Assembly (NCBI GenBank): GCA_963675495.1
Contig: OY776215.1
Span: 384,001 to 448,000, forward strand
Length of the DNA stretch: 64,000 nt
Reading direction: 5' to 3'
From: an uncultured Methanolobus sp.
GTDB lineage: Archaea > Halobacteriota > Methanosarcinia > Methanosarcinales > Methanosarcinaceae
The notes beneath the pieces were generated by a model. It was not told the origin of the DNA, made no database searches, and saw only the letters and a program-made list of their open reading frames with translations. The number at the start of each line of letters is the position of its first letter. Position 1 is the first letter of the stretch. The translations under genes and the position numbers were made by a program. Shown piece by piece: positions 12,300 to 15,760 of this stretch.

Positions 12300-14411
12300 A
12301 TGTATGAACCCATAAAGAAACAAAAAGATGCATTAAATATTCTTAAAAACATCGATCCGAATGTTGAGATAAAATGGGATGATAAAACAGGTGCACCACT
12401 GCGATTGAAGGGAGTTCTGGCCCGAAATGAGCATAAAGATCCGGTAAATGCTGCATTGGATTTCCTTGATGGGAACAAGGGACTTTTCTTACTGGAATCA
12501 GTTCAAAAGGAAATGCTGCTTAAGAGAGTAGATACTGACAGGATCGGCACCAGACACGTTCGTATGCAGCAGGTCTACAAGGACCTACCTGTATTTGGCA
12601 GTGAAGTGATAGTTCATATTGATGCAAATAATAACGTTAAAGGAACAACAGGAAAACTGACACCTGGAATCAAACTTCCTGAAAAACCAAAAATAAAGGA
12701 TGAAGAGGCTCTAAAAATTGTACTTAGCGATGACAGGAACAATTCTAAGCAGCGCCTGCATGCAGAGCCTGCTCTTATGGTGCTTTCACAGTTCATCGAA
12801 ACACCCCATCTTGTATGGCATGTGACTGTCAATGGTATAGACAAAGACCTTGAAGGCAATGAAACACTTGCAAAATGGGAATATTTTGTCGATGCATTGA
12901 ATGGGGAAATTGTCTGGAAGTATAACAACGAGCAAGGTCACAACCAAACAACCGGATCTGGAATAGGTACCTATGGAGGTGCGGTAACAATTAATACATT
13001 ACACGATCACGGCTCAGCCAAATATCTGCTTGAAGATCAGTGGGTACCCGGTTCTGCAAGGGTAATTACTCACGATGCTAACGGCGGCTATCCTCCTGCC
13101 CCTGTCTCTGAAGACAACAATAATAACTGGTCTGCAGCAGCTCAGGGGCCTGATGTTGATTGCCATCTCTACACGAGAATGGTGTATGACTATTTCTTTA
13201 CCGTTCATGGACGTGACAGCTACGATGATGCAGGAGCAGACATGCATATCTATGCCAACTGTGGAGCTAACTGGAACAATGCCACATGGAACGGTAGCTA
13301 TGTCAAGATAGGCAACGGTGACGGAGTCAGATATAACCCACTGTGTGCACAGGATATAATATCACACGAATGGACACATGCTGTTACTGAATATACTGCA
13401 GGACTGGTATATAGTAATGAGTCAGGTGCCCTGAACGAATCTATGTCTGATGTCTTTGCCGCTCTGATAACCGGCAACTGGCTCATGGGAGAAGAACCAT
13501 GGTTGCCTGCAACGGCACCTGCACTACGTAATATGGAAGACCCTACTAATGGTGGACTGTATGACCCTGCAAATCCCATAGATAGCATGCGTGCAGGCCA
13601 TCAACCCGACCATATGACTGACAAATATACCGGTTTTTCCGACAATGGTGGTGTCCACTTAAATAGCGGTATTATGAATAAAGCCGCTTACCTGATAGCC
13701 ACCGGTGGTACTCATCGCGGTATCAGGATATGTGAAGGCCTTGGACGCGACGTACTTGGTTTTATTTATTATCAGGCACTCACAACCCATCTGGTCTCTA
13801 GCTCAGATTTCAGCGACATGAAAGATGCGGTGTTGGATTCACTTGATGATCTCTACTCGACCAACCCGCATTATTCCCGCTGGAGAGCAAGCATCATCAA
13901 TGCTTTTGCTGCTGTGGGTATTGGAACTGCGGTCATCTGTCCGCTAATATGCTGGATAGCTCCGTTCATCTGTCCACCGTCGCCACATCTGATATGCCCA
14001 CCTGCACCGGGTTTCGCATGTCCTCCGGCACCTTATATATGCCCACCTGCACCGGATCTGATATGCCCACCATCGCCAATGATAGTATGTCCGCCTTCGC
14101 CGTATATTGCATGTCCACCGTCACCTGGACTTTCATGTCTGCCTGGGCCTGACCCATTGCCTTATATTCCGGAGATCCACAGAAGAAGACCGGATATAAC
14201 GGTGAAAACAGATATACTGGAAATCATAGGAATCGGTCCTGAAACTGCGACTCTTTTCAAAGGCAAAGCCATCCAGAATCTGGGAGAGTTCCTGAAGGCT
14301 ACTGAGAACTCAAAGAAGATCAGTGAGCTATCGGAGGTCCTTGGAATATCAGAAGCTAAGATGAATGACTGGAGAAAGAAGACACTTGTAATGCTTGGGG
14401 AAATTAGGTGA
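12300..14411 (+). CDS. M4 (thermolysin-family) zinc metalloprotease with propeptide, Cys-Pro repeat tract and C-terminal HhH/DUF4332-like domain
   Basis: FTP/PepSY-like propeptide (HVRMQQVYKDLPVFG, YFVDALNGEI); HEWTH, GALNESMSD and DNGGVHLNSG catalytic motifs; no hydrophobic signal peptide; C-terminal IxGIGP motif. Confidence 0.9.
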   Translation: MYEPIKKQKDALNILKNIDPNVEIKWDDKTGAPLRLKGVLARNEHKDPVNAALDFLDGNKGLFLLESVQKEMLLKRVDTDRIGTRHVRMQQVYKDLPVFGSEVIVHIDANNNVKGTTGKLTPGIKLPEKPKIKDEEALKIVLSDDRNNSKQRLHAEPALMVLSQFIETPHLVWHVTVNGIDKDLEGNETLAKWEYFVDALNGEIVWKYNNEQGHNQTTGSGIGTYGGAVTINTLHDHGSAKYLLEDQWVPGSARVITHDANGGYPPAPVSEDNNNNWSAAAQGPDVDCHLYTRMVYDYFFTVHGRDSYDDAGADMHIYANCGANWNNATWNGSYVKIGNGDGVRYNPLCAQDIISHEWTHAVTEYTAGLVYSNESGALNESMSDVFAALITGNWLMGEEPWLPATAPALRNMEDPTNGGLYDPANPIDSMRAGHQPDHMTDKYTGFSDNGGVHLNSGIMNKAAYLIATGGTHRGIRICEGLGRDVLGFIYYQALTTHLVSSSDFSDMKDAVLDSLDDLYSTNPHYSRWRASIINAFAAVGIGTAVICPLICWIAPFICPPSPHLICPPAPGFACPPAPYICPPAPDLICPPSPMIVCPPSPYIACPPSPGLSCLPGPDPLPYIPEIHRRRPDITVKTDILEIIGIGPETATLFKGKAIQNLGEFLKATENSKKISELSEVLGISEAKMNDWRKKTLVMLGEIR
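13935..14156 (+). repeat. Coding tandem repeat xCPP(S/A)Pxx, 7 clear units with 10 Cys in the tract
   Basis: ICPLICWIAPF-ICPPSPHL-ICPPAPGF-ACPPAPY-ICPPAPDL-ICPPSPMI-VCPPSPYI-ACPPSPGL-SCLPGPDP. Confidence 0.95.
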
Positions 14412-15760
14412 GCTTTCTGAAAAACGAACCGGGAACTATTCCCGGGCCCTTTTCTATTTTAGATAGGGATGAGCGTGTGCCATATTTCCCCTTCCGCATC
14501 AAGCAGGAACAGGATTTATGGGTTATAGAAAGCCCCTTCACAGGGCAGGAAAGTGAACTCAACGAGCCTGCGTTCTGGTTGTTAAAACTGTGTGACGGAT
14601 ACAGGACAGTTGATGAGATAATCACTGAGATATCGAAATCCTATAAAGCTGACAGGAACAATGTCATTAGTATGAGTGTGCCCCTGCTTGAGAAACTCAC
14701 GGACGAAGGAGTTCTATGGTGGCGCAAAGAGAGACTGAACTACTGGAAATTCCAGGCGCCTGCGGGTGTGCTCTGGGACCTGACAGCAAAATGCAACCTG
14801 AGATGTAAGCACTGCGTTGTCAGTGCAGGAGAGAAGGGTAGTGACGAGTTGAGTTTTGATGAGTGCTGCACGCTGATAGACCAGTTCGCAGATTTCGGAG
14901 TTGGACAGTTGATCCTTAGCGGCGGCGAGCCCATGGTCAGGAAGGACTTTTTTGAGATTGCCGAATATGCAGCAGGAAAGAACATCATGATACAGGTTGC
15001 CACCAACGGAACATTGATCGATGAAACGGCTGCACTAAGACTTGCCAGTATAGGTGCTTGTGCACAGGTGAGCCTTGATTCCTCCGAGCCTGCCGTGCAT
15101 GATGAATTCCGGCAGCGTCCCGGGTCGTGGCAGAAAACAAAGGAGGGAATCGAGCTTCTTGTTAAAGCAGGCGTTCCCGTCACCCTTGCAGCCACAGTTA
15201 CTACAATGAACATTGACAATATCCCTGAACTCTACGAGCTTGGAAAAAAACTTGGAATACAAACATTCCGTATTCTCCCGTTTGTTCCATTCGGACGCGG
15301 CAAATACGCTGATGAACTGGAAGTTGCTCCTGCAAGAATGAGAGAGCTGACGGTGTTCCTACATTCTAAAAGAGAGAATGATGAACTCAACATAGCTCCA
15401 ATGGAATTCGAGTGCACTTTCAGCCCTCCACCAGAGCAGGGAATCGATGCCCAGACCAGAATCGGATGCGATGGTGCAATAAGCTACTGTACTGTTACAT
15501 CAAGCGGAGAAGTACTTCCATGCAATTACTTTTCTGGAGCCGATGCGGAGAATGTGAAAGAACATGATTTCCAGTGGATATGGGACAATTCCCGTTTCCT
15601 TAATTATTTCAGGAGCCTGAAAGCCACGGATGTGAAAGGCAGCTGCCAAGAGTGTGACTGGCTTCCTGTTTGCAGGGGAAGTTGTATTGCGGCTAATTTT
15701 GCCCACGGGGATATATTCCAGTCGAATTGCCATTGCTGGCTGGTGAATTCAGGTGAATAG
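14408..15760 (+). CDS. Radical SAM/SPASM maturase with N-terminal PqqD-like RiPP recognition element
   Basis: LNEPAFWLLKLCDGYRTVDEI...LxxEGVL (PqqD-like); CNLRCKHC; SGGEP; SPASM motifs CDGA...GEVLPC and CQECDWLPVCRGSC; GTG start overlaps the protease stop (GTGA). Confidence 0.92.
   Translation: MSFLKNEPGTIPGPFSILDRDERVPYFPFRIKQEQDLWVIESPFTGQESELNEPAFWLLKLCDGYRTVDEIITEISKSYKADRNNVISMSVPLLEKLTDEGVLWWRKERLNYWKFQAPAGVLWDLTAKCNLRCKHCVVSAGEKGSDELSFDECCTLIDQFADFGVGQLILSGGEPMVRKDFFEIAEYAAGKNIMIQVATNGTLIDETAALRLASIGACAQVSLDSSEPAVHDEFRQRPGSWQKTKEGIELLVKAGVPVTLAATVTTMNIDNIPELYELGKKLGIQTFRILPFVPFGRGKYADELEVAPARMRELTVFLHSKRENDELNIAPMEFECTFSPPPEQGIDAQTRIGCDGAISYCTVTSSGEVLPCNYFSGADAENVKEHDFQWIWDNSRFLNYFRSLKATDVKGSCQECDWLPVCRGSCIAANFAHGDIFQSNCHCWLVNSGE

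Follow-up and report, generated by a model that had tools for sequence, protein, structure and literature searches.

Radical S-adenosylmethionine (rSAM) enzymes with a SPASM domain are known mostly as maturases of small peptides, and the modification of whole proteins has been documented in very few cases. The subject of this analysis is a pair of overlapping genes at positions 12,300 to 15,760 of a 64,000-nucleotide stretch of DNA (the window) from an uncultured Methanolobus sp. (contig OY776215.1, positions 384,001 to 448,000), which belongs to a complete 2.87-Mb genome. The first gene encodes a thermolysin-family (M4) protease that runs on into a C-terminal cysteine/proline repeat tract, and the second encodes an rSAM/SPASM enzyme with a PqqD-like RRE, the recognition element of pathways for peptides that are made on ribosomes and modified after translation (RiPPs).

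Several described systems share parts of this arrangement. In the QhpD/QhpC/QhpE system of quinohemoprotein amine dehydrogenase, several Cys thioethers are formed by an rSAM/SPASM enzyme in a subunit that remains a protein, and a subtilisin-like protease is found in the gene set. The acceptors of QhpD are Asp and Glu, and the protease is a separate gene that removes the leader; in the tract described here, in contrast, no acidic residue is conserved, and the putative substrate has the protease fused to its N-terminal side and the recognition motif on its C-terminal side. Freyrasin (PapB) and other ranthipeptides of the repeat-motif type have a short Cx3D motif repeated in one substrate, which resembles the repeated C-x3-acceptor motif and single RRE-rSAM/SPASM enzyme proposed here. 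However, the rSAM scored only 89.4 bits against the PapB model NF047865 (cut-off 340), the motif ends in Pro rather than Asp, and the candidate substrate is an enzyme of 450-700 aa and not a leader-core peptide. Borosins such as OphMA likewise have a RiPP-like core at the C-terminus of a full-size enzyme, but there the fused enzyme itself modifies the core, whereas in the present pair a protease is fused and a separate rSAM would do the modifying. Compared with thermolysin and other secreted M4 proteases, the prodomain, the catalytic domains, and the zinc and catalytic residues are kept, while the signal peptide is absent and 160 aa have been added (tract, follower motif and HhH-like domain).

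The first whole-protein example from a methanogen dates from 2026. In Methanococcus voltae the RRE-rSAM/SPASM enzyme CrpC acts on CrpA, a protein of 28.8 kDa, and forms ranthionine thioethers in its C-terminal repeats, with the Cys a few residues before the acceptor; one of the motifs modified is CPLVL (Dieter et al. 2026, PMC13692751). CrpC and CrpA resemble the present pair in that RRE, rSAM and SPASM domains are encoded beside a large protein with a C-terminal Cys repeat in a methanogen, the product being a modified protein. They differ in four respects: CrpC belongs to the TIGR04463 family, and the rSAM described here falls outside it; CrpA repeats a 17-aa unit with C-x-x-Q/D, and the tract a unit of 7-8 aa with C-x3-P; recognition was modelled at the N-terminus of CrpA, and here it is predicted at a C-terminal follower motif; and CrpA has no protease domain. 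The main text of the CrpC paper mentions the quinohemoprotein amine dehydrogenase (QHNDH), and peptidase, proline and Methanolobus do not occur in it; the supplementary data set of "multi-domain cysteine-rich proteins" might list related loci. In the literature consulted, no protease-fused rSAM substrate and no Cx3P repeat target was described, and the accessible text of PMC7159879 and PMC10885120 describes other systems. The first-pass annotation, a reading of the DNA made without database searches, had stated that it knew of no M4-protease-fused archaeal rSAM substrate. None was in print in the literature consulted, but the statement calls for a qualification: with CrpA, a large Cys-rich protein of a methanogen is now known to be thioether-crosslinked by an rSAM/SPASM enzyme (PMC13692751). 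As a kind of system, the combination of a Cys-repeat substrate with an RRE-rSAM/SPASM enzyme is already known. This enzyme clade, the C-x3-P unit, the predicted follower-type docking, and fusion to four protease families are new, and together they look like a widespread, uncharacterised protein-modification system.

The evidence supports the tract and the RRE-rSAM/SPASM enzyme as a coupled pair. An M4 alignment was scanned against one genome per prokaryotic species, which gave 66 M4 loci. The rSAM gene (44-81% identity) was directly downstream at all 14 tract-bearing loci (L002-L013, L015 and L017), which come from Methanolobus, cyanobacterial, Bacteroidales, Turneriellaceae, Anaerolineae and Euryarchaeota records. 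No rSAM was found in the examined flanks of the three close tract-less M4 loci (L014, L018 and L019; 50-61% identity), two of which are Mariniphaga proteins and the third a Calothrix protein whose tail is an unrelated repeat, or at any of the 48 distant M4 loci (26-38% identity); locus L016 was cut by a contig end. In the M4 tree the tract-less loci are nested among the tract-bearing ones, and three changes of the tract label are needed. Because of this nesting, at least two tract losses appear to have been accompanied by the absence of the rSAM. The three independent tree pairs were all concordant, the rSAM going with the tract, but with p = 0.25, and three pairs cannot reach significance.

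At the Calothrix locus (L014, 8001-10283, from a metagenome-assembled genome) and in protein P0036, four or five unrelated repeats of ~48 aa (…GTIGTKIA.YKWTEGWTTANFYTIGAKTY…) replace the Cx3P tract. The L014 M4 protein is 61% identical and has no rSAM nearby; its sister L010 (Halomicronema) retains both tract and rSAM.

For a phyletic profile, 150 further genomes of the same family were searched. Both genes were present and adjacent in 14 of 34 congeneric genomes and neither was present in the other 20, and because of this both-or-neither profile the pair is an accessory, patchily distributed module. The rSAM clade occurred in 17 of the 150 family genomes, 16 of which had a tract-M4 protein. 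In G069 and G076, from another genus, the tract tail adjoins the rSAM and the protease body is on another contig. What lies upstream of the rSAM in the 17th genome, G126, is a tract tail of the subtilase type, at a contig edge. Eighteen family genomes had only distant M4 proteins; 17 lacked the rSAM clade and the 18th was G126.

In the reverse direction, a profile of the rSAM was scanned against metagenomes and 80 loci were kept. Sequence identity cleanly separated 38 RRE-bearing relatives (38-81%) from RRE-less AhbD/NirJ-like proteins (~31%). Eight of the 38 clade loci could not be assessed, with the rSAM at a contig edge or partial. A Cys/Pro-motif protein was directly upstream at every one of the remaining 30: at 27 the upstream ORF had 4-27 Cx3P units, at two (one sequence found twice) it had a single C-terminal CLPGP unit (CLPGPRP), and at one it had CRPG[TA]P repeats with a period of 11. 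The control of 90 non-clade loci (935 kb in six frames) held nothing resembling a repeat tract, only four irregular chance clusters, each of exactly four Cx3P. A search of a representative library returned ~12 full-length and 7 fragmentary rSAM clusters (50% identity) above ~330 bits; below that value the scores were continuous, so that a score threshold by itself does not delimit the clade. A search for tract-only proteins gave 57 candidates and 17 matches, which is too insensitive for a census, and added the Thorarchaeota protein P0241. The first-pass annotation had named as refuting outcomes that repeat-bearing M4 proteases occur without an rSAM and that homologous rSAMs generally do not adjoin repeat proteins. 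Neither was observed, with no tract-M4 lacking the rSAM at the 14 genome loci or in the 16 family genomes and with a Cys/Pro-motif neighbour at all 30 assessable clade loci. Its archaeal scope was too narrow: the partners are mostly bacterial, and the tract is carried by three protease families besides M4.

The upstream partners were classified by Pfam. Astacins (M12A) were found at L085, L092 and L093, with the same junction motif at five more loci; subtilases (S8) were found at L087, L097, L099 and L100, and a papain homologue (C1) at L096. Two loci (L079 and L080) have stand-alone tracts of 200-260 aa with 20-24 units and no domain. A further N-domain of ~300 aa and of no known family occurs at L081 (4781-5920) and in P0241; it gave only a weak ARCH_RTEL1 match below the cut-off, and a search of the ESM Atlas with the P0241 N-domain returned unnamed clusters only. 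L081 has one CLPGP unit and P0241 a 7-unit tract. All seven astacins retain HExxHxxGxxHE and the SIMHY Met-turn, the subtilases retain their His and Ser motifs, and the papain homologue retains its Cys, His and Asn-Ser-Trp motifs; judged by these motifs, the partner proteases look active. By inspection, all complete partners lack a signal peptide and have hydrophilic, often Lys-rich N-termini.

A tree of the rSAMs was built from 48 clade rows and 5 outgroup rows, with 5 partial rows left out. The clade is set off from its RRE-less AhbD-like relatives by a branch of 2.44 (SH-aLRT 100), and it clusters by partner type, with 12 label changes compared with 26.6 in shuffles. One group holds the M4 partners with the stand-alone and single-unit forms nested inside, a second M12A with S8, and a third C1 with the CRPGxP form. 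Because the rSAMs cluster by partner type, the module appears to have co-diversified with its partners and to have been re-attached to new N-domains a few times. All-against-all clustering of the ORFs around 32 loci showed that only the two genes of the pair are common to all.

Two partner-specific variants were observed. At L101 (2-745) the repeat is CRPG[TA]P-x-PRP-x, with a period of 11 and Pro at +5 instead of +4, a variant unit for the same rSAM clade; a long D/E/Y/W-rich tail that ends in EDFDPWYG follows the repeats. A gene for a YscW-like protein of 116 aa without a lipoprotein signal (L085, 7323-7673, + strand; PF09619, E 4.2e-7) lies directly 3' of the rSAM and was found only at seven astacin-type loci (L085, L086, L090 and L092-L095). 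In the astacin subtype this protein may serve as a third component or may inhibit the protease.

In the Methanolobus protein the ten tract Cys are at residues 547, 551, 558, 566, 574, 581, 589, 597, 605 and 613. Nine of them have Pro at +4, and seven units read CPP[SA]P. The tract has a period of 7-8 aa (a repeat period of 24 nt by TRF), and it was disordered in the AF2 model (pLDDT about 30), which would fit a threaded substrate. The tract is not a chance occurrence: this is the sole Cx3P-rich ORF of the genome, with 9 units, and no other ORF exceeds 3 units, which are irregular. A tract ending in C-x-x-G-P-[DN]-P is present in 43 of the 57 best database matches (at least 45% identity), and in each of these Pro follows at +4 for every Cys except one or two. 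In an alignment of 24 sequences the C and P(+4) columns were invariant or nearly so, while the other unit positions drift among lineages (CPPSP, CPPNP, CPPKP, CKIAP, CKTEP). Unit number also varies among close relatives, from 8 to 11 Cys in Methanolobus-like proteins of 696-711 aa. Across the family the constants are an invariant Cys, a Pro four residues on, and a unit period of 6-9 residues; the period was 7 or 8 in 173 of 183 M4-tract units. The spacers are rich in I, L and V in the tracts of every partner type, and only an Arg enrichment of the astacin tracts is type-specific. Spacer residues were considered as protease-specific cleavage sites and rejected as not discriminating, the same spacers being present in all partner types.

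The complex of the rSAM, with SAM and three clusters, and protease residues 540-645 was then predicted. The ipSAE values were 0.74, 0.68 and 0.73 (median 0.73), compared with 0.00-0.02 for three controls; the ipSAE mark is reached by 58 of 80 solved complexes and by 2 of 110 mismatched pairs. At least 21% of the contacts agreed between runs, and the partner pLDDT was at least 35. Confident contacts joined RRE residues 39, 47-55, 58, 75, 79-81 and 85-96 to residues 619-629 of the protease, centred on Y622-I626. Tails were scored for [FY]xP in windows placed directly after the last unit or at the extreme C-terminal end. The motif was present in 35 of 39 unique partner tails, covering all partner types, compared with 59 of 1915 background ORF ends of this genome, and two of the four tails that miss it have PFNP or PFTP slightly outside the scored windows. 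The M4 forms are PYIPEI, PFRPKM and PFNPEI; those of the astacin, S8, C1 and CRPGxP partners are GGFDPSC, GPFNPKM, GGYDPQV and EDFDPWY, and in the non-M4 partners the motif is found 80-140 aa behind the tract, past a spacer rich in Tyr, Gly and acidic residues. Because the modelled RRE contact and the independent conservation coincide, [FY]xP is read as a follower-type recognition sequence that the RRE is predicted to bind.

The protease itself is complete in its prodomain and catalytic machinery. Pfam placed FTP at residues 74-119, Peptidase_M4 at 218-364 and Peptidase_M4_C at 367-541, the last two far above their cut-offs. The marks of an M4 protease are all present, namely HExxH, the downstream Glu of NExxSD, and the catalytic His of GGVH, and H356, E357, H360, E380 and H453 (GGVH) were invariant among 24 aligned homologues. 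Compared with pre-pro-thermolysin (5a3y), the 703-aa protein covered residues 32-547 of 5a3y (E 1.3e-75), the prodomain aligned too, and HEWTH/HELTH, NESMSD/NEAISD and GGVH were in register. Of the secretory pre-pro organisation, the FTP propeptide is kept and the signal peptide is absent: by inspection, the N-terminus reads MYEPIKKQKD and the alignment with 5a3y begins only at its residue 32. There is no room for a signal peptide, because an in-frame stop two codons 5' of the ATG closes the frame. Beyond the thermolysin C-terminus (...AAVGIG) the chain runs on for ~160 aa through the tract, CLPGPDP, PLPYIPEIHRR and a helical domain of ~65 aa. In the AF2 model this domain (638-700) is confident, with four helices (pLDDT about 88-92). 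HHH_5 scored 17.5 bits on it against a cut-off of 27 (E 0.006), PF14229 was unmatched in this protein, and precomputed PF14229 or PF14520 matches fell only on some homologues with 57-59% identity. Tract-bearing M4 proteins have two architectures, one of ~700 aa with the helical tail and one of ~640 aa ending in a short basic tail, and because the shorter form exists the helical tail seems dispensable in the family. M4 relatives of ~550 aa end at AAVGVG without a tract. The nearest named relatives, at 82-83% identity, are "M4 family metallopeptidase" entries of Methanolobus psychrotolerans and M. mangrovi.

The two genes overlap by the four bases GTGA (14408-14411), the first ending ATT AGG TGA and the second starting GTG AGC TTT. 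The rSAM has four marks of an RRE-dependent rSAM/SPASM maturase of the sacti- or ranthipeptide type: CX3CX2C, a SPASM domain with 7-8 Cys, a PqqD-like RRE, and an adjacent gene that bears Cys. The PqqD match scored 28.5 bits against a cut-off of 23.4 (E 1.9e-6, or 2.9e-7 when scanned alone), and the SPASM match 32.3 bits against 21.5. C129, C133, C136, C354, C361, C372, C413, C416, C422, C426 and C443, which include a CX2CX5CX3C motif, were invariant among 22 homologues. Much of what the first-pass annotation had read from the letters was borne out, including an intact M4 protease without a signal peptide, ten Cys in a repeat tract, the GTGA overlap, the RRE, CxxxCxxC and SPASM. The complex model, a check that it had proposed, supports binding of the protease by the RRE (median ipSAE 0.73 against 0.02 for the best control). 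Two of its readings needed amendment. The conserved register is C-x3-P and not CPPxP, as CKIAP, CKTEP and CPPNP of the homologues show, and the HhH/DUF4332-like tail is supported in part: AF2 gives a helical domain, but its HHH_5 score is below the cut-off and the Pfam matches are confined to homologues.

The rSAM reached no NCBIfam equivalog. The best score, 225.6 bits, was to AhbD (TIGR04545, cut-off 500) and covered residues 121-443 only; an identity as AhbD heme b synthase was rejected, the score being below the cut-off and an extra PqqD domain being present. A separate RRE-less paralogue, 35% identical to the rSAM, is encoded elsewhere in the same genome. The CrpC family TIGR04463 (cut-off 525 bits) was not among the 25 best of the 82 matches, and its six weak matches in this genome (no more than 48.9 bits) include none at the rSAM gene (contig positions 398408-399757). 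By sequence, the closest solved relatives are SkfB, PqqE, CteB, SuiB and the anaerobic sulfatase-maturing enzyme (anSME). The marks of an anSME target are absent: the tract units are C-x3-P, with a variable +2 position and Pro rather than Arg at +4, and there is no sulfatase domain. A role as a defence system was considered and rejected, as PADLOC gave only generic viperin-like rSAM similarity.

Taken together, these results make it fairly probable that the two genes are a RiPP-type substrate-maturase pair that acts on a whole protein and most likely forms thioethers. The protease would be made in the cytoplasm as a signal-less zymogen, its C-terminus running into the disordered C-x3-P tract. 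The rSAM/SPASM enzyme would dock through its N-terminal PqqD-like RRE on the [FY]xP follower just behind the tract (619-629), and the upstream units would then be fed one by one into its active site. The most likely reaction would close one intramolecular thioether in each unit, joining Cys-S to a carbon in a residue that lies a few positions downstream, and the tract would thereby become a chain of small rings. One ring per unit is favoured because Cys, P(+4) and the period resemble a repeated two-site motif, and because of the CrpC precedent. The modified tract would probably remain attached to the protease, initially at any rate, and form a rigid appendage that resists proteolysis.

Several points weigh against this interpretation. 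We infer the Cys as the modified atoms, the thioether product and every biological role. Homology does not favour thioether formation, because the best scores are to AhbD, NirJ2 (210.7 bits) and MftC (173.9 bits), none of which makes thioethers; the models for PapB, AlbA, SkfB, StsB and WgkB gave only 84-141 bits. The complex model was confident at the RRE only, with no confident active-site contacts; its custom alignments and riding ligands depart from the calibration of such predictions, and poses of an RRE with a peptide look like those in solved complexes, so that their scores may reflect memorised structures. We know of no report of Pro as a thioether acceptor, and the conserved P(+4) may be purely conformational. 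No transporter, immunity gene, exporter or other conserved partner was found around the pair at the 32 clustered loci. The interpretation offers no purpose for the fusion of signal-less secretory-type proteases to such a tract.

If the substrate-maturase reading is true, the pair represents a second, unrelated and much more widespread family of whole-protein modification, spanning archaea and at least six bacterial lineages. Its unusual traits are that four signal-less protease families carry the substrate, that a C-terminal follower seems to be the recognition site, and that the repeat is C-x3-P. Residues about 540-640 and one enzyme give a defined, short and testable substrate for finding new radical chemistry, and the role of cytoplasmically made homologues of thermolysin, astacin, subtilisin and papain becomes a cell-biological question.

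A more far-reaching version, which we put forward tentatively and consider rather unlikely as a whole, is that the Cx3P tract and its rSAM form a maturation module which can be attached to different leaderless "secretory-type" proteases, in which the ringed tract is a store of many small cyclic peptides or a stapled, protease-proof device and the chemistry includes a thioether from Cys to the Pro region. We know of no description of such a thioether. The peptides of a store might be released by the attached protease; a device might serve as a latch, a stalk, an anchor or a handle for non-Sec export, and might control where and when a dangerous protease of broad specificity becomes active.

That the fused protease cuts between the modified units, in a self-processing multi-core RiPP factory whose true products are small peptides, was one of the readings offered by the first-pass annotation, and it now seems unlikely. 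Four unrelated endopeptidase families (M4, M12A, S8 and C1) with intact catalytic motifs precede the same module, which suggests that proteolysis matters. Thermolysin cleaves next to hydrophobic residues, and the units are short and fairly regular, with hydrophobic residues between them that a thermolysin-type enzyme could cleave; their number also differs between close relatives, as in multi-core precursors. However, the same clade serves the stand-alone tracts L079 and L080, and L079 has no protease gene in its examined flanks; it also serves the unknown N-domain of L081 and P0241 and the one-unit variant of L081. Because such partners exist, neither a protease nor multiple cores can be obligatory. 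The I/L/V-rich spacers accompany every partner type and do not track protease specificity, and no exporter is conserved beside the pair. A stapled, resistant appendage on a zymogen fits the stand-alone, unknown-domain and single-unit partners better.

It is also possible, though in our view quite unlikely, that the rSAM modifies the tract without crosslinking it, by conversion of Cys to formylglycine as in the anaerobic sulfatase maturases, by epimerisation, or by another single-residue change. The rSAM/SPASM fold supports many chemistries, the top-scoring AhbD, NirJ and MftC are not thioether makers, and the sequence matches in the PDB include anSME (E 9e-8). The target motif of anSME is C/S-x-P-x-R, which is not kept in the tract units, and to our knowledge anSME lacks an RRE. 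The strict C...P(+4) at fixed spacing resembles a two-site motif, and the one tested archaeal protein-modifying relative in kind makes thioethers (PMC13692751).

It is highly improbable that the tract is a mere Pro-rich linker or hinge next to an rSAM that acts elsewhere (on a small upstream ORF or a cofactor) and adjoins it by operonic convenience: Pro-rich linkers are common, the best family scores of the rSAM are to cofactor enzymes, and a 63-aa two-Cys ORF (11894-12085) is conserved upstream in Methanolobus loci, but the coupling holds for four protease families and for stand-alone tracts, in archaea as well as in many bacterial phyla, with both genes lost together, the 63-aa ORF is absent outside Methanolobus and shifts in position, the RRE is modelled onto a motif just behind the tract, and Cys and P(+4) are invariant while other tract positions drift.

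The features of the pair are listed in Table 1. The genes 3' of the rSAM lie on the opposite strand, and the terminator-like hairpin behind its stop codon is likely to mark the end of a two-gene unit.

Table 1. Features of the M4 protease-rSAM pair, in window positions.
Feature	Positions	Strand	Basis
M4 (thermolysin-family) pro-protease with Cx3P tract, follower motif and helical tail, 703 aa	12300..14411	+	ORF list, Pfam, alignment
FTP propeptide motif, aa 74-119, inside N-terminal prodomain aa ~1-215	12519..12656	+	Pfam PF07504, E 1.8e-14
Catalytic M4 domains, aa 218-541	12951..13922	+	Pfam PF01447, E 1.7e-28; PF02868, E 1.1e-38
HEWTH, aa 356-360	13365-13379	+	M4 zinc motif
Cys/Pro repeat tract, aa 547-617, ending in CLPGP; proposed rSAM substrate	13938..14150	+	Conserved C and P(+4)
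Follower recognition motif, aa 619-629, PLPYIPEIHRR, core [FY]xP; predicted RRE docking site	14154..14186	+	Complex model, conservation
C-terminal helical domain, aa 638-700, HhH/DUF4332-like	14211..14399	+	AF2, four helices
RRE-rSAM/SPASM enzyme, 450 aa, GTG start overlapping the M4 stop	14408..15760	+	ORF list, Pfam
PqqD-like RRE, aa ~23-110	14474..14737	+	Pfam PF05402 at 50-103
rSAM core, aa 125-277	14780..15238	+	Pfam PF04055, E 2.2e-26
CX3CX2C, C129/C133/C136	14792-14815	+	Three Cys invariant
SPASM domain, aa 354-443	15467..15736	+	Pfam PF13186, E 1.2e-7, match 354-417
Terminator-like hairpin and T-run just 3' of the rSAM stop	15772..15788	+	Consensus scan only

Inside the 5' end of the rSAM gene there is a perfect 7-bp palindromic hairpin (CCGGGAA...TTCCCGG) with a T-rich run at 14429-14445. 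It sits 20 nt past the M4 stop and could reduce read-through into the rSAM.

Upstream of the pair, at 8702-11148 (+ strand), three consecutive genes with SipW-type signal peptides matched Pfam Peptidase_M73 (camelysin/TasA-like; E 2e-7 to 1.9e-16). The third of these ORFs is only 94 aa and may be truncated. The Peptidase_M73 genes are just upstream of the pair in the window and are not conserved with it at other loci. The 63-aa ORF at 11894-12085 (+ strand) has two Trp-Cys motifs, a Lys/Glu-rich tail and no Pfam match. It is 49-79% identical in Methanolobus loci only and lies about 0.25 to 2 kb upstream of the pair. As a candidate substrate of the rSAM it was ruled out, being confined to Methanolobus and found at a varying distance.

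Downstream of the pair, an IS-type DDE transposase is encoded at 18941-19864 (- strand; Pfam DDE_Tnp_1, E 9.7e-21). It lies in an AT-rich stretch, with a GC content of 0.31-0.35 at 18-24 kb compared with about 0.42 elsewhere.

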